From a virus: a stretch of 64,000 nt of DNA. A model generated the notes under the pieces. It had not been told where the DNA came from. It searched no databases and saw only the letters and a program-made list of their open reading frames with translations. Positions within the stretch are counted from its first letter, which is position 1. Every line of letters starts with the position of its first letter. Positions 2,980 through 48,473 of the stretch are shown one piece after another. A program made the position numbers and the translations under genes. The stretch is taken from the IMG/VR virus record IMGVR_UViG_3300003320_000410, positions 6,937 through 70,936 of that record; one strand, given 5' to 3'.

Positions 2980-3178
2980 AAGCTCCATCAACTTAGAAAG
3001 AGCCTCTAAAAAGCTCGTTAAAGACATTCTCCCTGATCCATTCTTAACCTGGATGAAAGAGCGCGGTATAAGCTTTAAAAACGGCTATTGGAAAGACTAC
3101 ACAGGTAAGAAACTATGTGAAAGCTATGATGAGTTACTGATTATATTCAGGGAAGAAGAAAGAGAACAATACTTATAA
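2966..3178 (+). CDS. Hypothetical protein (MPHIKSSINL...)
   Basis: In-frame ATG at 2966 within track ORF 2885..3178. Confidence 0.6.
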   Translation: MPHIKSSINLERASKKLVKDILPDPFLTWMKERGISFKNGYWKDYTGKKLCESYDELLIIFREEEREQYL

Positions 3179-3202
3179 AGGCTACTGGCAAACCGAAATA
3201 GT

Positions 3203-3228
3203 CCCCGGCAAAAAAGTCGGGGCTTTTT
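3203..3228 (+). terminator. Intrinsic terminator ending the early + strand block
   Basis: CCCCGGC/GTCGGGG stem followed by T-run. Confidence 0.7.
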
Positions 3229-3286
3229 ATTAACTTTATTAAAACACTATTTAAGAAAGAAGATTGAGTGTACCAAATAAAAAAGG

Positions 3287-3315
3287 AAAGCCCCGGTAGA
3301 AACTGGGGCTTTTTT
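3287..3315. terminator. Bidirectional intrinsic terminator at convergence of early and late blocks
   Basis: AAAGCCCCGGT-AGAA-ACTGGGGCTTT with A- and T-runs on the flanks. Confidence 0.8.
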
Positions 3316-3334
3316 CGCATTTATCACTTGAAAT

Positions 3335-3445
3335 TCAAAAGCCGGAATAAGTACGATGCACTTTACCGCACATAGTTCTATCCGATCTACAGGCGGAGAT
3401 CATAAACATACATAAAATTCCTACTAAAAAGAGAATGCGTTTCAT
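3335..3445 (-). CDS. Tiny lipoprotein (36 aa, MKRILFLVGILCMFMISAC-RSDRTMCGKVHRTYSGF), not in track
   Basis: Basic N-region, hydrophobic h-region, lipobox ISAC; followed by the 3287 terminator. Confidence 0.7.
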   Translation of the reverse strand: MKRILFLVGILCMFMISACRSDRTMCGKVHRTYSGF

Positions 3446-3636
3446 TGTATTTTTGATTTTAGGGGTTACAAAATTGAACACCCCGCTGGGAACAGTAGGG
3501 TGTTTTTGATCATAGACTAATCAAAGTCCATTAATCATTAAACCTAAATCCTATGAATAATTATCAACCCGCGAAATAATCTAAATAGATTGCCGGGCAC
3601 TGTGTCCTTGCTATTCCAACACATTCAAAAATTTTT

Positions 3637-6916: not shown

Positions 6917-6974
6917 TGTGGTAAGGGTGGCTCTAATAGATTGGGAATATTGTTTTGCTCATAATTTTTCATAC

Positions 6975-21862: not shown

Positions 21863-24208
21863 TTATTCTGATTTAGTTGTGGGTTCTAAAAGTTTGGGTA
21901 TGTTTTGGATATGACTCGCCGCAATCTTCGCCGTTCCTGTTGTGTCAGCTACCGCTTGCTTCGAAAAATTACTCTCCCTAGCTATCTGTAGGGCATACTG
22001 CTGTCTTAATTGCTCTTTCTGAAGTTCGCCGTCTACTTCCATTTTCTTTTTCTGTAATTCAACTTGGGCCTCAAGCTGCTTTTGTTGCATCATCGATTGT
22101 GCGGCAATTTGAGCGGCCATTTGCGATTGCTGCCCTTGTGTTTGCAGTTCGGCTTGCTTTTGCATGGCCATTTTATCTTTAGCCTTTTCAACACGGTAGG
22201 CCAAAATTCTCATTGCTTGTTTTGCGTTATGAGTGCTTATAATAAATATTGCATCTGCGGTAGATAAAAAACCATTCGCTATGTCCTGCTGAACGAGATT
22301 CATTAGCCATGCTTTTTCTTGTTCTGTGCTGGCCTCTTGTAGCATAATTCCATGATCCCTAACACTCAAGTCGGAATCCAATTTCAAAAACGTAAGTGCA
22401 TTAGAATTGAGGGCACCTTTATATGGCATTACCCCTTCTACGTCTCCCTTGCGTAAACCTTGTTTTTGACGGCAGAGCACATCTTCCGCTAATTTACAAG
22501 TAAGCCAATTCTCTGCTGCTGCTAACGGATAAAGTGCGTCGTCTGTGCTGATATTGGCGGTCTCATATCCTGGCGTAAGCGTTTTCGGGTTAGGGTCTCC
22601 TGCCGTAATAGCATTATATCCAGTGGTTGCTTCTATGGATTGTACCGTATTTAAAAGGTCTTGATATAGTCCTGCCAATTCCGATATAGCTGAGTTGGTA
22701 ATGGGGATAACCGGTTTCCAGTTTGGCCCCATTGGATTGCCGTCTTCGCCTTTGCTTCGCCCCAATAAGACTCCCGTATCGAAGAACATTTGCAAAACTT
22801 CTCGTGGGGTCATGTTCTTGCCGCCCTTGTTCAAAGCGATATTTTCCAGCGCATCCAAATCTATCCACCAACCAGAAGGAACGGCCCTATTTTTCCAGTT
22901 CTGTATTTTATAAATAGTAAGTTGATAGTCGTCCAGGTAAGGGATAAGACGTTCCATAACGCCTTGTGCCCGCATTTCATAGAAATTGAAGGCATAGAAC
23001 TTATAAGATAGAGTTGTCTGAGCCTTCTTTTTAGGGTCGTTGCTCCTTTTTTGATCATAGGCCAGCCCAAAATCATATACATGATCCGTTCCTACTATCC
23101 ATTTTACTTTATAGATAGATTTCACTCGTTTGCGGGTGTATTTATCTTTAGCTACTTTTCCCCGGCCATAATCGGCCCGTCTAAAATCCAGTTGTCCGGA
23201 TTCATTAACAACCATTTTGTAATTGTAATCGTCGTAGCTTTCAAACTCCAAGTCCAGCACCTTGCACTTGAACTTATCATATGGACGGTACATCCCCACA
23301 ACGCGACCATAGATGTTAGGATTTCCCCATTTACCAGCCAATGACCCTGCAAATTCTTGTAACTCATCCTCGCTAAAGCGTGGCGTTCCATCTTCATTTT
23401 TAATCAATGCCAAATCATTCAGTGATACATCTATGACCTCTCCGGCATGCACCATATCTGTAAAGTCACCCTTACGACATAGGTTAGTGATAACACATTC
23501 CACATTGGCGCGGCGGAATTTCGCTTTATTGTCGTCACCCAACCATTCTTTGTATCCGGCTATCCCGTAATCGAAAAGGTCTTCATAAATGCTTTTTCTC
23601 CATTGGATATAATCATTTTCATAAAATCCTAATTCGATGGCATTTTCGGCATCCTCACTACGCATAAATTGTTCTCCCATCATAATTCGCATTTCCAATT
23701 CCTCTACGTCCATTGGTTCGCCTGATTGTAAGGATATGAGCGGGTGATTCGCCATTTCAGGATTTTGCTGCTGCATCAATTGACGAACGGCTAATTTTGC
23801 CTTCATGCCAGCATAGTATTGATCCAATTCTCCTTTTGCTAAGGAATCTACAGGGGTAGCAACAATCCCCATTACCTGCTTCATCAAACGAGACAATGCT
23901 CTATCCCTATATCTGGAAACGATCGGTCGTACGGTCCAGTCCACAGAAAGCCATGTTTCATCCGTCTGCTGATCTACCCCCAATTGCTTCTTGTATTGAG
24001 ATATGACCTGTTTTCCTAATGCATACATTCTGAATTTTTCGTAGTCCCCATTGTTGTTGTATAATACTCCCTTTGGATAGGCGTAACACCAATCATAAAA
24101 TGCTGCCTTAGCATATGCCATACAATATTCTGCACCCTTTTTTGCCGGGTCTATAGCGGAATCAGGAAAAGGATAACTCCCACCCGCAGCTATTTGTACA
24201 TACCGCAT
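21863..24208 (-). CDS. Portal protein
   Basis: 781 aa following terminase; Gln-rich coiled-coil C-terminus. Confidence 0.8.
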   Translation of the reverse strand: MRYVQIAAGGSYPFPDSAIDPAKKGAEYCMAYAKAAFYDWCYAYPKGVLYNNNGDYEKFRMYALGKQVISQYKKQLGVDQQTDETWLSVDWTVRPIVSRYRDRALSRLMKQVMGIVATPVDSLAKGELDQYYAGMKAKLAVRQLMQQQNPEMANHPLISLQSGEPMDVEELEMRIMMGEQFMRSEDAENAIELGFYENDYIQWRKSIYEDLFDYGIAGYKEWLGDDNKAKFRRANVECVITNLCRKGDFTDMVHAGEVIDVSLNDLALIKNEDGTPRFSEDELQEFAGSLAGKWGNPNIYGRVVGMYRPYDKFKCKVLDLEFESYDDYNYKMVVNESGQLDFRRADYGRGKVAKDKYTRKRVKSIYKVKWIVGTDHVYDFGLAYDQKRSNDPKKKAQTTLSYKFYAFNFYEMRAQGVMERLIPYLDDYQLTIYKIQNWKNRAVPSGWWIDLDALENIALNKGGKNMTPREVLQMFFDTGVLLGRSKGEDGNPMGPNWKPVIPITNSAISELAGLYQDLLNTVQSIEATTGYNAITAGDPNPKTLTPGYETANISTDDALYPLAAAENWLTCKLAEDVLCRQKQGLRKGDVEGVMPYKGALNSNALTFLKLDSDLSVRDHGIMLQEASTEQEKAWLMNLVQQDIANGFLSTADAIFIISTHNAKQAMRILAYRVEKAKDKMAMQKQAELQTQGQQSQMAAQIAAQSMMQQKQLEAQVELQKKKMEVDGELQKEQLRQQYALQIARESNFSKQAVADTTGTAKIAASHIQNIPKLLEPTTKSE

Positions 24209-24209
24209 A

Positions 24210-24359
24210 TCATGCTATATTTAAATGTTTCCAACTTTTTTTTGATATAAGTTCTCCAACGTGTTGCCGACCAAGAGTACTTATTTGATAATCCCCATCA
24301 TATCCTACTATATCTCTCCATATTTCCTTTTCTCCCGCTGCGATCTGAACGTATCTCAT
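24210..24359 (-). pseudogene. Internally deleted NUMOD4 homing endonuclease relic (49 aa) fused to a copy of portal codons 1-9; not in track
   Basis: MRYVQIAAG-EKEIWRDIVGYDGDYQISTLGR-QHVGELISKKSWKHLNIA. Confidence 0.75.
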
Positions 24360-24361
24360 AA

Positions 24362-26476
24362 TTAACTAGCTTTATGCATTGGCAAAATAGATTCAATATC
24401 TCTGTGTGCTTCTGTTGGTCGTTTATACCTTGTTCCTCTAACGTTAATGAGTGTAAATCCAGCTGCCATAGGTTCATCGAACTTTTGAGTATCCTCCACC
24501 GCAAAACCTAACCACCCGGTATCTTTTCTTATTAATGACTTAAACAGTATTTTTTTATGATGTTCATTGATATACGATTCTGTATAATTGCATATCATTT
24601 GCACCACATTGCCAGTTCCGTCTGTATAAATTCCTGGTTCTGCTTCTCCCGGCAACCATACTAAGAATCCGCCGCATCCCATTTCATTAAAATAATCCTT
24701 CCAGTGGTTAACGTTCCTTTCGAATAATACCTTGCACCCGCATAGCCAGGCCATTTTAAGAACATCATCATTTGCCTCCCTAGTTGATCCGGGTCTGAAA
24801 CAATATCTAAGAACAAACATATCATTAAACTCATTTTCCAAGTCTAACTGATCTTTTACTTGATAGGCAAATGCTGCACAATTTGATCTTCGTTTATCCT
24901 TTGTCTTATCATACTTAAACGGGTCCGCTCCTATTCGAATGGCGAAATTATTGTTCGGAATAAATTTACCATTGTTTTCTACAACCTTATTAGGGTCCTT
25001 CGGCCACCAATCTTTTACTTTTTCAAATCTACCATTTTCATTTGGAATCCATACAATTTCATTGACGACTAGTTTTTCTTCGCCGCGTACATCTTTTTTT
25101 ATTTGGAATGGCATTCCGTCTTTCCATTTCAAATCCCCTTTTTCAGTCAAATCATTTCGCCAAGAAATAGCGTCTAACTGATTATTCAATAGTTCCGGGT
25201 CATACAAGGCATGTTCTCCGTCACCAGAAAATGCCTCTTTAAAGGTCATCGGATTTTTTCTCTTGAAAGAAGATAGCGCCCTGCTATCCCCATCATTTTC
25301 GTACTTCTGCCTAGTATTCAGCAAAAACTGGATAGCCCTTTCTTCATCCGCATAACCATACTTATCAAAGAACATGGCTTTTTGGGCGGGTACAAAGAGT
25401 GTATACAATCCCGTCCCCGTTCGTCCATTGGCATCTCGTTCCAATGGGTTTGATTGAGCCGTCATTTCTTGGAAATCATAATTCTCTGGTTCCCCTTTAT
25501 CAGGTTCTACTGTAGTAGTATATATAGCTTTTCTTCTTCCAAACTCCCCGTCAATTTCACTACAATACCGTACTATATTTTGTCGTTCTTTGATGCTAGT
25601 TGGCTTTTTAGTTTTACCAGCCTCATCCGCTACATAAGAGTCCACCTCCGGACCGTCCAGCGCGTTTTCATGGGATGCATAGAAGTTAATAAAAGAATTA
25701 AGCGCTTCTTCCGTTTGTTCCTGTTCCGCGCTTGATCCTCTACGAGAAGTATTAAAGAACCTAAGCTCTTCGCTTGGGTCGTCCCCTTTCATTACGTCGT
25801 ATGTCGGCCTAAAGAAGTGAGGTAATGTTTTCCACGGATGCACCACTCCTTTTTTGAACATTTCCCATGCATCATCATCGGTCTTGGATTGGCAGGTAGC
25901 ATGATGATTCTCTTGCCTAGAAGCTCTTTCATACATCCAACAGCCGGACTTTGCCGTCTTACCGCTTTTCCTTTTCTCGATATCGTTAAGACCTAAACAA
26001 TTTGGATCATCCTCGCAATATTTTACCACGTACCAGTACTTCATGTCTGGTATTCTGAATCCAAAATATTTACCTTGAAACTTCCAATAAGTCAACATGA
26101 AATAATGTACTCCTACAATATATTCCAATTGACTTTCTTTGGTATATGGATTGTAGTTCCAAAACCATACCCCGCACAATCTCCTATGCCATTCCCTTAC
26201 TCTAAATTCCTCTAACTCAATATTGATAAATAAAGGATCGAACTTTTGCCTTTCTTCTTCTTGTTTTCTTAGTAATTTGTAGTTTTTTGGCAATTCAGGT
26301 TTCTCCCAAAATTGTTCTTCCGGAATATCGGAACGCTTTAAAATGTCTGTCTCTTTAACTTGGCCATCAGAAACATCTACGCCATACCCAAGAGGAGGTC
26401 GCCAGCACCGGTAAATGAACCCAAATGCATTATCTGGTATTTCGTATACACTCCCTCCTAGTATCTCTTTAAACAT
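24362..26476 (-). CDS. terL: Terminase large subunit
   Basis: Walker A-like KRKSGKT, Walker B VADEAGK, nuclease-domain GADP and KFDE. Confidence 0.9.
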   Translation of the reverse strand: MFKEILGGSVYEIPDNAFGFIYRCWRPPLGYGVDVSDGQVKETDILKRSDIPEEQFWEKPELPKNYKLLRKQEEERQKFDPLFINIELEEFRVREWHRRLCGVWFWNYNPYTKESQLEYIVGVHYFMLTYWKFQGKYFGFRIPDMKYWYVVKYCEDDPNCLGLNDIEKRKSGKTAKSGCWMYERASRQENHHATCQSKTDDDAWEMFKKGVVHPWKTLPHFFRPTYDVMKGDDPSEELRFFNTSRRGSSAEQEQTEEALNSFINFYASHENALDGPEVDSYVADEAGKTKKPTSIKERQNIVRYCSEIDGEFGRRKAIYTTTVEPDKGEPENYDFQEMTAQSNPLERDANGRTGTGLYTLFVPAQKAMFFDKYGYADEERAIQFLLNTRQKYENDGDSRALSSFKRKNPMTFKEAFSGDGEHALYDPELLNNQLDAISWRNDLTEKGDLKWKDGMPFQIKKDVRGEEKLVVNEIVWIPNENGRFEKVKDWWPKDPNKVVENNGKFIPNNNFAIRIGADPFKYDKTKDKRRSNCAAFAYQVKDQLDLENEFNDMFVLRYCFRPGSTREANDDVLKMAWLCGCKVLFERNVNHWKDYFNEMGCGGFLVWLPGEAEPGIYTDGTGNVVQMICNYTESYINEHHKKILFKSLIRKDTGWLGFAVEDTQKFDEPMAAGFTLINVRGTRYKRPTEAHRDIESILPMHKAS

Positions 26477-26813
26477 CGTTCGTTCTTCTCGCTATTGATT
26501 GTGGTGTTATAGGAATAATTCGCTTGGCGTCCTTTTCTTCATCTCCCGTAATGCCAGCAGCATCGCCTAATGTTTTTATAGCAACTGCCAAATCTGCGGC
26601 ATCTTTCCAAATTACTTTCAATCTATCAAACGTCTTAGACTTTGGGTCATCCAATTCTATTTTTATCAAATCTGTATTATTTAATAATTGGGCCATTTCC
26701 CACGCCTTTCTAACTAAACTATAATATAGTTTAGCAGCTCCGTTTTCTTCATACTTAGCCACTAATTTTTCAAGTTCATCAACCCTATTTTGAAGCTCTT
26801 CAATTCTGCTCAT
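26469..26813 (-). CDS. Putative terminase small subunit
   Basis: Small helical protein overlapping the terL start. Confidence 0.45.
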   Translation of the reverse strand: MSRIEELQNRVDELEKLVAKYEENGAAKLYYSLVRKAWEMAQLLNNTDLIKIELDDPKSKTFDRLKVIWKDAADLAVAIKTLGDAAGITGDEEKDAKRIIPITPQSIARRTNDV

Positions 26814-27705
26814 TACAAATATTTTTCGTCTTTTTATTTCTATAATTCACTCCATCATATTTAGCCCCTTTGCTTATATTATCCACTTTCCACAATGGCT
26901 GTAAATTAGTATAATGGAAACATTTCAATTGTTCTTCAACCTTCGTTAGATCAAAGCTAGAGCATGGCTTTATGTGATCAATGTGAATATCAGATATATT
27001 AGCCCAAGTCATCCCTTTTTTAAATTTACTTTCTATGTGAACCTTAAGAGTTTCTTTGTCGCACCCAACCAATTCTGAAAAAGAATTTCTTTTATACTTT
27101 TCACCTCCAAGACTCTTTATGGCTGTCCTCAATCTAAATCTTAATCTTCTAGTAATTATATATGCAGGATCATTATCCTTTCTATAATTATGCCTTTGCA
27201 TCCGCCTGGCATTTAATTTTATTTTATTCTTCTGCACATACTTTTTTCTACTTTCTTTATTTTCAGGCTTATCATTCCATTCTTTTTGCTTTCTTAAAAC
27301 CTCCTCTCTATTTTTTAAATATTTTTCCCTTTTTTGTTTTTTTATCTTTTCTTTATTCAAAGGGTCAGAAATATATTTTTTATAGTGGGTTTTAGTGTAC
27401 TCTTTCCCTTCTTCACTATTTCTCCATTTAGCATTATTGCATAATAATTCATTTCTATTCTCCCAATATTTTCTCTTTCTGTACTCTTTCATTCGTTCTT
27501 TATTTTCTGGTCTGCTTCTCCATTCTAATGATCTTTTTATTTCCTCTTCCCTGTTATTCAAATATTTACTCTTTTTATATTCAGCTGAGCAGACTTTACA
27601 CATCGGCTGAACTAAGCCTGTTATAGAAGATTTTTTGTGGTATTCATTTTTATTCTTTTCAATACCACATTTTGTGCATACTTTTGTTTCTTTCCTTTTT
27701 CTCAT
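26800..27705 (-). CDS. HNH-type endonuclease with N-terminal CxxC fingers and charged repeats
   Basis: CTKC..CKVC; C-terminal HIDHIKPC...CFHYTNLQPLW..DN. Confidence 0.8.
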   Translation of the reverse strand: MRKRKETKVCTKCGIEKNKNEYHKKSSITGLVQPMCKVCSAEYKKSKYLNNREEEIKRSLEWRSRPENKERMKEYRKRKYWENRNELLCNNAKWRNSEEGKEYTKTHYKKYISDPLNKEKIKKQKREKYLKNREEVLRKQKEWNDKPENKESRKKYVQKNKIKLNARRMQRHNYRKDNDPAYIITRRLRFRLRTAIKSLGGEKYKRNSFSELVGCDKETLKVHIESKFKKGMTWANISDIHIDHIKPCSSFDLTKVEEQLKCFHYTNLQPLWKVDNISKGAKYDGVNYRNKKTKNICNEQN

Positions 27706-27708
27706 TTT

Positions 27709-28800
27709 CTATAGAAATTTTTCATCTTTTAACATTTTGGCTGCTTGTAATCTGGCCTGAACATTTTTATAAATACTTCCATACGAAGCAGGACGAAAAT
27801 TCATATCAAGAAAATTGTCATTTTTTAAATAACCCTTCTCCTTATAAGACTGTATCATTTTACGAACATTCCCAGCCCCCCCGTTATATGCAGCCAATAA
27901 AAAAAAGTCTCTTTGTCTAGGTGTCAAAATAATATTATTTTTAGATAAATAATTATCTAAATCATCACCTGCTGCTCGTAAAACAGCACTTTTAGCCATC
28001 AATGCATCAGCATCGGTCTTGAAGGCAGCCGCATTTAACTTCTCTCCTTTTTCGTTTTCGGCATAGAACTTAGTAAATCTATCTGAAAATCCTTTTGGCA
28101 AATAGCCCTTCTTTTCCAAGGCAGCGGCCTGATCTGCAAACATGTCAAGGCCATAGTTATAGAATGAATCGACCGGATATTCAGCAGCTTTTTCTTTATT
28201 TTTTTCTGACCAATTTACATAGGCTTCACTAGCATTATCTGAGTATTTGGGGTCTACAGCGCCAGACATACCCTCTTCCATTGCAGAACCATACAATAAT
28301 GCAGGGTCAATTTTGTTGAATTGTGCAGCTTGCGTAACTGCATCCCTAACTTTGCCACCTGCTATAGGAAATTCGTTGTCCAATTTATTACCCCAGTTAT
28401 ATCGTCCTTGTTCTCTTAAATAAGGATTGGATGCATATTTTACTTTTAACTGATCGGCGGTGGGATGTACTGTCGGTGGGGTGGTGCCGGGTGTTGTTGT
28501 CGGAGGGGCAGTAGCTGGGATGCCTAAATATCTCTCCATATCTGTTCCAAAATCAATTGATCCTTTTTTGAATTCCGGGTACTTCATGGAGTTACCACTT
28601 AAATAAGAGTCGGGCAATCCTTGTTTGGCGTACGATAATTGCTCGGGTGTTAGATTACCGAAACTATTACCATTCTTGAATTGAGATATTTCATACTGAG
28701 CATGTGGGGCCAATTCAGGCGGGGCATTATTATTCCAATCCGTTCTTTGTTGAACTGATAAAGGAGTATAGTTTTCTGGTTGTAATAGTTCGTCTGTCAT
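27709..28800 (-). CDS. Virion-associated lytic transglycosylase (SLT-like)
   Basis: IDPALLYGSAMEEG, YGL and LAAYNGG lysozyme-fold motifs; follows ejection proteins. Confidence 0.7.
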   Translation of the reverse strand: MTDELLQPENYTPLSVQQRTDWNNNAPPELAPHAQYEISQFKNGNSFGNLTPEQLSYAKQGLPDSYLSGNSMKYPEFKKGSIDFGTDMERYLGIPATAPPTTTPGTTPPTVHPTADQLKVKYASNPYLREQGRYNWGNKLDNEFPIAGGKVRDAVTQAAQFNKIDPALLYGSAMEEGMSGAVDPKYSDNASEAYVNWSEKNKEKAAEYPVDSFYNYGLDMFADQAAALEKKGYLPKGFSDRFTKFYAENEKGEKLNAAAFKTDADALMAKSAVLRAAGDDLDNYLSKNNIILTPRQRDFFLLAAYNGGAGNVRKMIQSYKEKGYLKNDNFLDMNFRPASYGSIYKNVQARLQAAKMLKDEKFL

Positions 28801-45087: not shown

Positions 45088-45680
45088 TCCCATTACTAAC
45101 TATAATGATCCCAACCACCGTAGACAGGCAAGACCTTTTCAGGCCCTTGATTTCGGAATTATGGCGTCAAATATATGAAAGTGCGTGGCTCCCGGCTGTT
45201 GATATAATTTCTATGGAGGACGACAAACGAATTTCTGTAGGCTATAAACGCCAGCTTTTATTAGAAAGGGCCACAGGATTATTTGTAGTGGGGTTTGATT
45301 CCGACGACTGGCCAGCCGAAGATTATATTTCTTCCATAATGGGGGCCATTTCTAACCATCCAAATACTGATCATGTTGGATTTTTAGAGCACTGTACGAT
45401 AGATGGCAAAGAAAGCATATCCTGTTTTTCATCTAGTCATTTGAAATGGGAAGAGAATGCTCACGGGTTTGACCATATTCGTTGCGCTAACCCAAAATCG
45501 GTCATCCGCCGTTCGATTGCTTTAAAGGTAGGGTTTCAGGATTTGAGATACGGAGAGGATAGAATATTTTCAGAAGCAGTTACGCCATTAATCAAATCAG
45601 AAGTTTTTTTGAATAAGGTTTTATATTATTATCGCCACACTTCAAATATGACTCATGAAAAAAGATACGGCATTATTTGA
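45084..45680 (+). CDS. Glycosyltransferase family 2-like
   Basis: LTIMIPT, FDSDD, GED, LYYY motifs. Confidence 0.8.
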   Translation: MIPLLTIMIPTTVDRQDLFRPLISELWRQIYESAWLPAVDIISMEDDKRISVGYKRQLLLERATGLFVVGFDSDDWPAEDYISSIMGAISNHPNTDHVGFLEHCTIDGKESISCFSSSHLKWEENAHGFDHIRCANPKSVIRRSIALKVGFQDLRYGEDRIFSEAVTPLIKSEVFLNKVLYYYRHTSNMTHEKRYGII

Positions 45681-46389
45681 GATTGTTTGTAGAGTTTGTC
45701 AAACTGTTAAGGGTGTTGAATCGTTTATTGGTAAAACTAAAAAAAATGGTCGTTTTTACTATGATAAAATATGCAAAGAATGCCTGAATAAAAGGCTTAG
45801 GTCAAAAAGGGTTATAAAAAGACAAAACATCCCAGAAATTCCAGGAGAGATTTGGGTGCACCTTCCTGAATTTGAAGGTCACTATCAAATTAGCAATTTA
45901 GCCAGAGTAAAGTCTATTGATAGGGTTGTGATGAGATCGGATGGATTTGCAGTTAGAAAACCATCTCAAATCAGAAAGGTTAGAATTAATCAAGATGGAT
46001 ATTTGCAACTAGTTTTAATTAAGGATGGTAATTTTTATAATACCTCTCTCCATATACAGATGGCAAAGGCTTTTGTTCCGAACCCAAATAATCTGCCTGA
46101 AGTTAACCACATAGATGGCAATAAACAAAATTGCTTACCCACTAATCTCGAATGGAACACCCACCTATGCAATATGCAGCATGCTGTTAAAAACGGCCTT
46201 AGAAAATACGCAAAAGGAGGCCCCTCAATCAGATACAAAATACCATTAAATGACGTTCTTTATATTTACAGAAGTGATGAAAAAACTGGTGTATTAGCCA
46301 AAAAGTACAATGTAACTAAGTCCGCCATTCAAAGGATTAAAAATGGACAAACATATTCAAAAGTAACTAATCATGGAGCTAAAGAATAA
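45655..46389 (+). CDS. NUMOD4-HNH homing endonuclease
   Basis: EIWVHLPEFEGHYQISNLARVKS; VNHIDGNKQNC...NLEW. Confidence 0.9.
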   Translation: MKKDTALFEIVCRVCQTVKGVESFIGKTKKNGRFYYDKICKECLNKRLRSKRVIKRQNIPEIPGEIWVHLPEFEGHYQISNLARVKSIDRVVMRSDGFAVRKPSQIRKVRINQDGYLQLVLIKDGNFYNTSLHIQMAKAFVPNPNNLPEVNHIDGNKQNCLPTNLEWNTHLCNMQHAVKNGLRKYAKGGPSIRYKIPLNDVLYIYRSDEKTGVLAKKYNVTKSAIQRIKNGQTYSKVTNHGAKE

Positions 46390-47092: not shown

Positions 47093-47923
47093 ATGGCTAT
47101 ATTTCAAGTAGACACAATGAAAGCGATAATATCGAGCACGGAAGATGATAAGTATTTATTCTTTATCCCAATAGTGGCTTGGTGCTGGAAGAAACTCGAT
47201 GTTCAGACTATTTGTTTTATCCCATCGGGGCGCATTTCGGCATTGAAGATAGATTTGATATTTGAAGTGTTGCAAAAGGTAGATACCCCTGTAGAATTTC
47301 ATGTTTTTGATTGCGCTGAAGGCAAGGAGGCCACTTACGCCCAATGTTCAAGACTATATGCGGGGGCCTTGGATTTATTAGATGATGAAATACTTGTAAC
47401 TTCCGATGCAGACATGGCGCTTTTCAAGTTACCTATTCCAGAACTTATTGATTCCTCTGTACAATTTAATGTATTTGGATCAGACTTAGTTCCTCCAAAG
47501 CAAATTCCAATGTGCTACGTTTCCGCAAAGGCTTCAGATTGGAAATTAGCCTTTTCAAAAGGACGCTCACTTCAACAGTGTTTGGACGAATTATTAAAAA
47601 ATATAGAATCTGCCACAATGAAATCAGACTATTGGGGCAAAGATCAAGAAGAGATGTTTAATAGCCTTTATCTGCATCCAATAGTAATTCAAGACAATCC
47701 AAGGGCTAGGCCCGGCACACAATTCGCTTCAAACCGGTGCGACAGAGACGACATAAATTGGCGTTCATATTTAGGGGGGTATTTAGTCGATGCCCATCTA
47801 TGGAGGCCGGGGTACACAGACGAAAACTTTGCTAATATCCTTGAATTACTACAGACGCAATATCCGAATGACCATTTTGATTGGTTAATAAAATATAGAA
47901 ATGATTATGTCAGTCTTTTATAA
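47093..47923 (+). CDS. Glycosyltransferase-like protein
   Basis: QCSRL, ILVTSDADM (DxD), WGKDQ motifs. Confidence 0.55.
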   Translation: MAIFQVDTMKAIISSTEDDKYLFFIPIVAWCWKKLDVQTICFIPSGRISALKIDLIFEVLQKVDTPVEFHVFDCAEGKEATYAQCSRLYAGALDLLDDEILVTSDADMALFKLPIPELIDSSVQFNVFGSDLVPPKQIPMCYVSAKASDWKLAFSKGRSLQQCLDELLKNIESATMKSDYWGKDQEEMFNSLYLHPIVIQDNPRARPGTQFASNRCDRDDINWRSYLGGYLVDAHLWRPGYTDENFANILELLQTQYPNDHFDWLIKYRNDYVSLL

Positions 47924-48473
47924 TTCTCCACGTTTTTATGAAATAAAACCTCTGCAAAAAGAGAAGTGGTTACCTTTGGGTGATTTTGAAAATAACATCT
48001 GGGTAAGCAACATGGGGAGAATAAAGGCCATTGCTTGTCAAAATAGGAATAATCGAAAAAGGGGAGAAGAGTACATAATACCACAATTTATCTGCGGTAG
48101 AGGATATTTGACTATAGGATTTTGTTATAATGGCAAAAACTATATGAAATCTGTTCATAGGCTAGTTGCATTGCTTTTCATTCCGAATCCTTTAAATAAA
48201 AAGACGGTAAATCATAAAAAGGGAATAAAAATCGATAACAGGGCCACTGAACTTGAATGGGCCACTTATTCAGAACAAGAAATACATTCATTAAAATTGG
48301 GTCTTAGAAAAACAGGGTCAGCCCATTTTGCTACAAAATTAACAGATGAAGATGTTTTATTTATTAAAACATCAAATATGAAACAAAATGAATTAGCTAA
48401 AAAATTCGGTATTTCAACAGCTCATATTAATAATATAATAAAAGGTAAAAGAAGAAAGAATGAATATTCCTGA
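47901..48473 (+). CDS. NUMOD4-HNH homing endonuclease
   Basis: WVSNMGRIK; VHRLVA..F, VNHKKG.K.DNR..ELEW. Confidence 0.9.
   Translation: MIMSVFYNSPRFYEIKPLQKEKWLPLGDFENNIWVSNMGRIKAIACQNRNNRKRGEEYIIPQFICGRGYLTIGFCYNGKNYMKSVHRLVALLFIPNPLNKKTVNHKKGIKIDNRATELEWATYSEQEIHSLKLGLRKTGSAHFATKLTDEDVLFIKTSNMKQNELAKKFGISTAHINNIIKGKRRKNEYS

Follow-up and report, generated by a model that had tools for sequence, protein, structure and literature searches.

What is a 49-codon open reading frame (ORF) doing between the large terminase gene (terL) and the portal gene of a phage, and why does it begin with the same nine residues as the portal protein, written in different codons? The locus lies in a 64,000-nucleotide stretch of DNA, positions 6,937 to 70,936 of the IMG/VR record IMGVR_UViG_3300003320_000410, and this whole stretch is referred to as the window. 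The record is a metagenome assembly of 72.4 kb, estimated to be 95% complete, and its source is an uncultured soil phage. On the minus strand, which carries all features of the locus, terL (24362..26476; 704 aa; PHROG 6681 terminase large subunit, E 1.1e-52) ends with TAA and is followed after 2 nt (TT) by the mini-ORF (24210..24359; 49 aa; stop TGA). A spacer of a single T (24209) separates the mini-ORF from the portal gene (21863..24208; 781 aa; PHROG 6547 portal, E 1.6e-53). Both the mini-ORF and the portal protein begin with MRYVQIAAG. The upstream copy (24333..24359) reads ATG AGA TAC GTT CAG ATC GCA GCG GGA, and the downstream copy (24182..24208), which is the working portal start, reads ATG CGG TAT GTA CAA ATA GCT GCG GGT. 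Seven of the nine codons and 8 of the 27 nucleotides differ, and all of the differences are silent. The mini-ORF is the gutted remnant of an HNH homing endonuclease related to I-HmuI, and its first nine codons are a portal start.

The anatomy of the remnant was resolved by profile searches and by alignment with 12 full-length relatives, which form one clade. Residues 12-31 of the mini-ORF matched Pfam NUMOD4 (PF07463) with an E value of 6.7e-7 and 29.9 bits against a cut-off of 23.4, and the match covered only profile positions 1-20 of 49. The full-length enzyme of the relative L007 matched the same profile over positions 1-48 (E 7.3e-13). In the alignment, the mini-ORF corresponded to residues 1-32 plus the last 17 residues of the full enzymes. 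Residues 10-32 (24264..24332) hold a linker and the first half of NUMOD4, and residues 33-49 with the TGA (24210..24263) hold the last helix and a WKHL(K/N)IA end (QHVGELISKKSWKHLNIA), the counterpart of the conserved ...WKHLKIA end of the full-length proteins. The deletion junction falls between 24264 and 24263. About 129 codons are gone in frame, comprising the HNH core and most of the C-terminal helix-turn-helix; the missing alignment columns, 33 to ~166, hold the conserved block HRLVA...EVNH.DGNK.NN...NL.W...NMKHA. When the relic was aligned with the full genes as DNA, the ends of the deletion were not sharply placed. Since the HNH catalytic core is absent, the window copy is a relic and not a member in working order. 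The mini-ORF itself was a singleton in collections of 15 billion proteins. A profile-free search of 1.8 billion representatives returned only itself and generic NUMOD4 repeats, and a search for proteins of near length returned only itself. A protein of 76 aa in the representative library (P0320) has a NUMOD4 start (MENEIWKDIKGYEGAYQVSSLGN) joined directly to a ...KKWKHI end, which indicates that the same kind of core deletion arose independently in a related endonuclease.

The window portal had 560 homologues at E <= 1e-30, with hundreds of uncultured relatives, and it was 23-26% identical to the portals of cultured Flavobacterium, Cellulophaga and Maribacter podophages. Megablast of the terL-to-portal region against GenBank phages gave no match, and a degenerate DNA pattern for MRYVQIAAG had no match in the viral contigs. 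Relatives with a full NUMOD4-HNH gene at this site were sought, and two were found, L007 and L011, together with many empty sites. The occupied loci of three genomes (the window, L007 and L011) were compared as DNA. L007, a metagenome contig, encodes a portal with 70% identity to that of the window. It carries a 180-aa ORF (3029-3571) between terL and the portal gene. This ORF starts with MRYEQISSGAQ, which equals residues 1-11 of its own portal, and 6 of the 33 nucleotides differ, all silently. After this repeated portal start, hereafter the tag, come a complete NUMOD4, the HNH block, a helix-turn-helix and the end ...NWKHLKIA. At this site, the viral contig L011 encodes a homologue of 179 aa, with the tag MKYQALNNGS against MKYQSLNNGS in its own portal; 8 of the 30 nucleotides differ, and 7 of these differences are silent. 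The stop, spacer and ATG are TAA T ATG in L007 and TAA A ATG in L011, and the spacer is thus 1 nt in both, as in the window. A DNA pattern for the junction (WKHL.IA, stop, N, ATG) matched only the L011 contig. The three genomes agree in having the endonuclease ORF in phase with the portal gene and a duplication of 9-11 codons. The same repeated-start layout at the same site in two other genomes indicates that the layout of the mini-ORF is not due to chance, and the full enzymes at the exact site let the relic interpretation stand.

The clade shares further features. Its profile matched I-HmuI (PDB 1U3E) over residues 2-125 with an E value of 7e-22, covering NUMOD4-like N-terminal strands and the HNH motif, and Pfam HNH_3 was detected in 7 of 9 clade members. 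The intact enzymes are 171-181 aa long and consist of NUMOD4, HNH and a C-terminal helix-turn-helix. A start of the form M[RKQN]Y was present in 9 of the 12 clade proteins and in 111 of 120 portals, compared with 2 of 108 more distant endonucleases, which typically start M-(K/E)-E-x-W. The clade tags comprise 6-11 residues and agree with known portal N-termini, with matches such as 11/11, 8/8, 6/6 and 7/8 residues. The WKHLKIA-type end was found in 10 of 12 clade members and in none of the 108 more distant endonucleases.

In all three genomes, the sole in-frame ATG, GTG or TTG before or within NUMOD4 (first 28 codons) was codon 1 of the tag, and an in-frame stop was located 9-30 nt upstream of the tag (9 nt in the window). 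As the enzyme has no start codon of its own, it must be translated from the displaced portal start. In the window, the upstream copy occupies the position of the portal start in empty-site relatives, and the 14 nt TAATT-ATG-AGA-TAC recur unchanged where terL meets the portal gene in the empty-site relative L001. For L007, an empty-site relative with ~88% DNA identity was available (L005), in which the last 135 nt of terL were 97-100% identical. Over codons 1-9, the upstream copy of L007 differed from the L005 portal start by 2 nt and the downstream copy by 5 nt, all silent, and further changes follow the downstream copy. The upstream copy of L007, which is closer to L005, is thus the resident and the downstream copy the newcomer. 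An earlier note on this DNA, made from the letters alone, had described a 49-aa ORF repeating MRYVQIAAG in other codons, and this proved exact when the sequence was re-read. Its proposal of a NUMOD4-HNH relic with the core deleted in frame agreed with the alignment to the full-length clade. It had also proposed that the endonuclease took over the portal translation start, in accordance with the sole start codon in three of three genomes. On the question it raised as to which codon set is ancestral, the upstream set was resident in L007, and the junction match suggests the same for the window.

The occupancy of the site was compared among 43 related terL-portal junctions. About 39 were empty, and in these the end of terL lay 0-23 nt from the portal ATG. 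The others were two junctions with the tagged enzyme (L007 and L011), one with a different endonuclease (L125) and one without upstream sequence. The element is sporadic at a fixed site, and it is probably mobile and site-specific. The different gene in L125 (IMGVR_UViG_3300027963_000104, 968-1519) is an untagged NUMOD4-HNH gene of 183 aa, and the portal start overlaps its final 19 nt. The TAA stop of this gene depends on portal codon 6, which is ATA followed by A here and ATT followed by A in empty-site relatives. The L125 portal start showed 5 silent differences from the empty-site relatives and no amino-acid change.

Besides the anatomy, the homology, the site occupancy and the start-codon dependence, which are observed directly, a mechanism may be proposed. 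The mini-ORF is very probably the dead remnant of a mobile cassette built on an I-HmuI-like homing endonuclease that targets the portal start. The clade would be a specialist for portal gene starts within a single family of uncultured ~70-kb Bacteroidota phages. An intact cassette would comprise three pieces: a start-less endonuclease body, a stop plus one base, and a replacement portal 5' end. It would enter the resident portal gene in frame after codon 6-11, in the window after the ninth codon. The endonuclease would then be translated from the resident portal ATG, directly after terL, and the portal from the imported ATG, 1 nt past the endonuclease stop. The upstream copy would be the resident allele and the downstream copy the allele brought with the element from a related phage, which would account for a shared peptide with unlike silent sites. 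Through these silent changes, the rebuilt portal start would no longer be a target, as the earlier note had supposed, and the element would be protected from loss through recombination between the repeats. In the window genome, a deletion of ~390 nt would have taken the HNH core. The remaining 49-codon scar could not be excised cleanly and may still carry ribosomes from terL to the portal start.

Several points weigh against this interpretation. Nuclease activity, cleavage at the portal start, the target site, immunity and coupling are all matters that we infer. The assignment of the upstream copy as resident in the window draws solely on the conserved junction with L001. The silent divergence at the portal start (codons 2-12) between occupied and empty pairs was not clearly above the gene-wide level (5/9 vs 0.35, P = 0.17). 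Moreover, portal residues 12-43 vary strongly among all close relatives, and a co-conversion tract there is suggestive, not proven.

The identical peptide with different codons could be explained in more than one way. The silently variable codons that differed between the two copies within a genome were 7/8, 6/10 and 7/8 in the three genomes, and a single replacement was seen in all. When distinct portal starts from different phages were compared over codons 2-9 (528 pairs), no pair showed six or more silent differences. Five silent differences with no replacement occurred in 2 of the 528 pairs (L005-L007, and L110/L132/L142-L125), both with an occupied locus. The within-genome pairs had 5-7 silent differences and 0-1 replacement over the same codons, and all three lie at the extreme. 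Residues 2-11 were usually identical (0-2 differences) among portals at least 85% identical in the core. Over the whole portal gene, occupied genomes and the empty-site relatives nearest to them showed a silent divergence of 0.30-0.48 per codon. A resident allele beside an allele from a related donor would thus give an identical peptide with many silent differences, and no selection on the tag is needed. The pattern is most simply explained by two natural alleles side by side, the resident one and one that would have been imported with the element from a related phage. The earlier note had concluded that there was selection on both copies or deliberate-looking recoding. This emphasis was likely wrong, because residues 2-11 are usually identical among related portals anyway. 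Artificial recoding was also considered on the basis of codon usage and was rejected, as both copies use codons that are ordinary for the window genome.

Selection may still have shaped the silent sites, and we regard this as a possible but lesser explanation than simple import. Silent differences would be favoured either because they make the portal start uncuttable or because they abolish a direct repeat of 27-33 bp, through which the element would be deleted. The proportion of differing codons is in agreement with this: 20 of 26 silently variable codons differ over the three genomes (0.77), against 0.30-0.48 gene-wide. In addition, the extreme pattern of many silent changes without replacement was found only in comparisons with occupied loci, including that of L125 with its unrelated endonuclease. 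However, 0.77 is near saturation of silent sites, and a more distant donor explains it equally well. The ordinary codon usage of both sets also speaks against selected recoding, the changes in L125 are partly forced by the overlapping reading frame of the endonuclease, and the sample is small and not independent.

A present-day role of the scar, as put forward in the earlier note, may also be considered. After loss of the nuclease, the 49-codon ORF could have been kept by selection for the passage of ribosomes and re-initiation at the portal ATG. This is compatible with a relic origin, to which it adds a function, and we consider it rather doubtful, while coupling as such is possible. In empty-site relatives, terL and the portal gene are 0-23 nt apart or overlap (ATGA). 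The relic retains the native terL-to-ATG junction, as well as the stop-1 nt-ATG junction of both intact elements. No terminator-like site was found in the region, and promoter-like matches were no commoner than in shuffled sequence. Furthermore, translational coupling of free-standing endonuclease genes to their neighbours has been discussed for T4 mobE and others (PMC2988022). However, each of the three reading frames through the 3' remnant meets a stop codon between -15 and +16 nt of the portal ATG, and an out-of-frame deletion would deliver ribosomes as well; the in-frame deletion is therefore weak evidence for coupling. A deletion has a 1-in-3 chance of being in frame anyway, and phage homing endonuclease genes commonly decay by in-frame deletion (PMC10448857). 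As the relic is a singleton, its conservation is not measurable.

A more far-reaching proposal, which is unlikely as a whole, is that the clade acts as a natural 'home-and-rescue' drive. It would be a lineage without its own start codon, landing in the first ~10 portal codons and always carrying a silently recoded, nuclease-immune spare start. Imprecise loss would kill the phage, the recoding would be kept by selection, and repeated homing would also explain the variability of portal residues 12-43. These residues (window ~24080-24175, minus strand) form a hypervariable patch adjoining the landing site of the endonuclease. In portals 85-99% identical over residues 44-600 (P0001-P0120), there were 3-15 substitutions in residues 12-43 and 0-2 in residues 2-11. 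The window portal and P0001 (94% identical) differed by 5 changes at residues 14-43 and by 1 in the next 237 residues. This cluster was tried as evidence of co-conversion and set aside, since the patch is variable among all close relatives and the cluster is not specific. Repeated co-conversion by homing elements is one possible cause of the variability.

The remaining explanations fared poorly. The endonuclease could be a working terminase accessory, as in HK97-like and GVE2-like phages, with the mini-ORF as a reduced form. Its position between terL and the portal gene is the same as that of the GVE2-like HNH gene of all 89 Skunavirus genomes, in which the always-present enzyme is a packaging factor (PMC12724721). 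However, the enzyme was present in 3 (plus 1 unrelated) of ~44 related junctions, it is I-HmuI-like with NUMOD4 and thus of the homing type, and the window copy lacks the catalytic core in a record judged 95% complete. On this distribution, with ~39 of 43 related junctions lacking the enzyme, a packaging role was rejected as very improbable. That the repeated 27 nt arose by chimeric assembly of two strains, or that the ORF is due to chance, has a negligible probability: the record is indeed a metagenome assembly, but the repeat flanks a recognisable endonuclease remnant, and the same layout occurs with different sequences in two independent assemblies from other samples.

Other endonuclease genes were also found in this genome. 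Two NUMOD4-HNH genes in the window, at 45655-46389 (plus strand, 244 aa) and 47901-48473 (plus strand, 190 aa), have ORFs that look full-length, and a third lies outside the window (G000:C1:4991-5317). The three matched the clade profile with E values of 1e-30, 2e-28 and 6e-19. The two genes in the window overlap the genes on both sides by 14-26 nt, and neither begins with a copy of a neighbour's N-terminus. In addition, a gene at 26800-27705 (minus strand) encodes an endonuclease of 301 aa (PHROG endonuclease VII / endonuclease) with an HNH-like C-terminal part. It lies 3 nt from a lysin-like gene (27709-28800) and overlaps by 14 nt a 114-aa gene upstream of terL. Neither L001 nor L007 carries a gene there, which suggests that the packaging module contains a second mobile endonuclease.

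The closest parallel to the tagged elements was found in mitochondria. The mobile-ORF (mORF) endonucleases carry a foreign duplicate of the C-terminus of a host gene, as in atp6, atp9, cox2 and nad3 of Glomus (PMC3630166), and such 'gene hybrids' were also reported for atp6 of Allomyces macrogynus (Paquin, Laforest & Lang 1994, cited in PMC3630166). In the mORF case, identity to the relative was 91-98% for the native copy but 64-81% for the inserted one, with ~100% identity of the proteins (PMC3630166). The elements described here resemble them in that an essential host gene and the endonuclease ORF share one phase, and the carried, probably foreign duplicate replaces the resident end. Similarly, the resident copy stays alongside, and the peptides are nearly identical. 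In L007, moreover, the resident copy is close to its relative and the other copy is diverged. In contrast, the host here is a phage, and the 5' end (9-11 codons) is duplicated, the mirror image of the 3' end in mitochondria. Furthermore, the displaced resident piece gives the enzyme its only start codon, whereas in mitochondria it is a dead remnant. The nuclease here is of the HNH type (I-HmuI-like), and the likeness drawn to mORFs is one of layout.

Among phages, the seg and mob genes of T4 are sporadic and lie beside or inside essential genes, and mobE and mobA split host genes (PMC2988022, PMC2790892). The likeness extends to reading frames that abut or overlap their neighbours, which suggests translational coupling; in T4, flanking DNA is also co-converted. 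Decay by in-frame deletion is likewise known for phage homing endonucleases (PMC10448857). However, each T4 gene is translated from a start codon of its own (AUG, or GUG in the case of mobA) and lies either between two genes or within one gene, whose product is then split into two polypeptides; none of those described takes over the start of a host gene and brings along a second 5' end. I-HmuI, the enzyme matched by the clade profile, is an HNH homing endonuclease encoded in an intron of the Bacillus phage SPO1, and it starts M-EWKDI. The present clade is not in an intron; it has 6-11 extra N-terminal residues derived from the portal and a different C-terminal helix-turn-helix ending in WKHLKIA. 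The literature yielded no description of this layout or of a duplicated 5' end in phages, with incomplete coverage, so that absence is not proven.

Engineered home-and-rescue and cleave-and-rescue drives are directed at an essential gene and bring with them a rescue copy that has been recoded to be uncuttable; they are synthetic, use Cas9 and were built in insects. The phage elements resemble them in linking a nuclease to a silently different replacement of its essential target, where immunity would be the counterpart of the uncuttable copy.

For annotation, the finding explains why small orphan ORFs, and short 'twin' gene starts, occur between terL and the portal gene, and it warns that the first portal codons can be of foreign origin. 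The portal starts of L005 and L007 form a putative pair of target and immune site for an uncharacterised I-HmuI-like enzyme. Tailed phages thus possess, as a mirror image, a layout previously described from fungal mitochondria, with an enzyme that depends on the start codon of its host gene. It offers a natural, testable example in which a nuclease is paired with a silently different rescue copy of its essential target.

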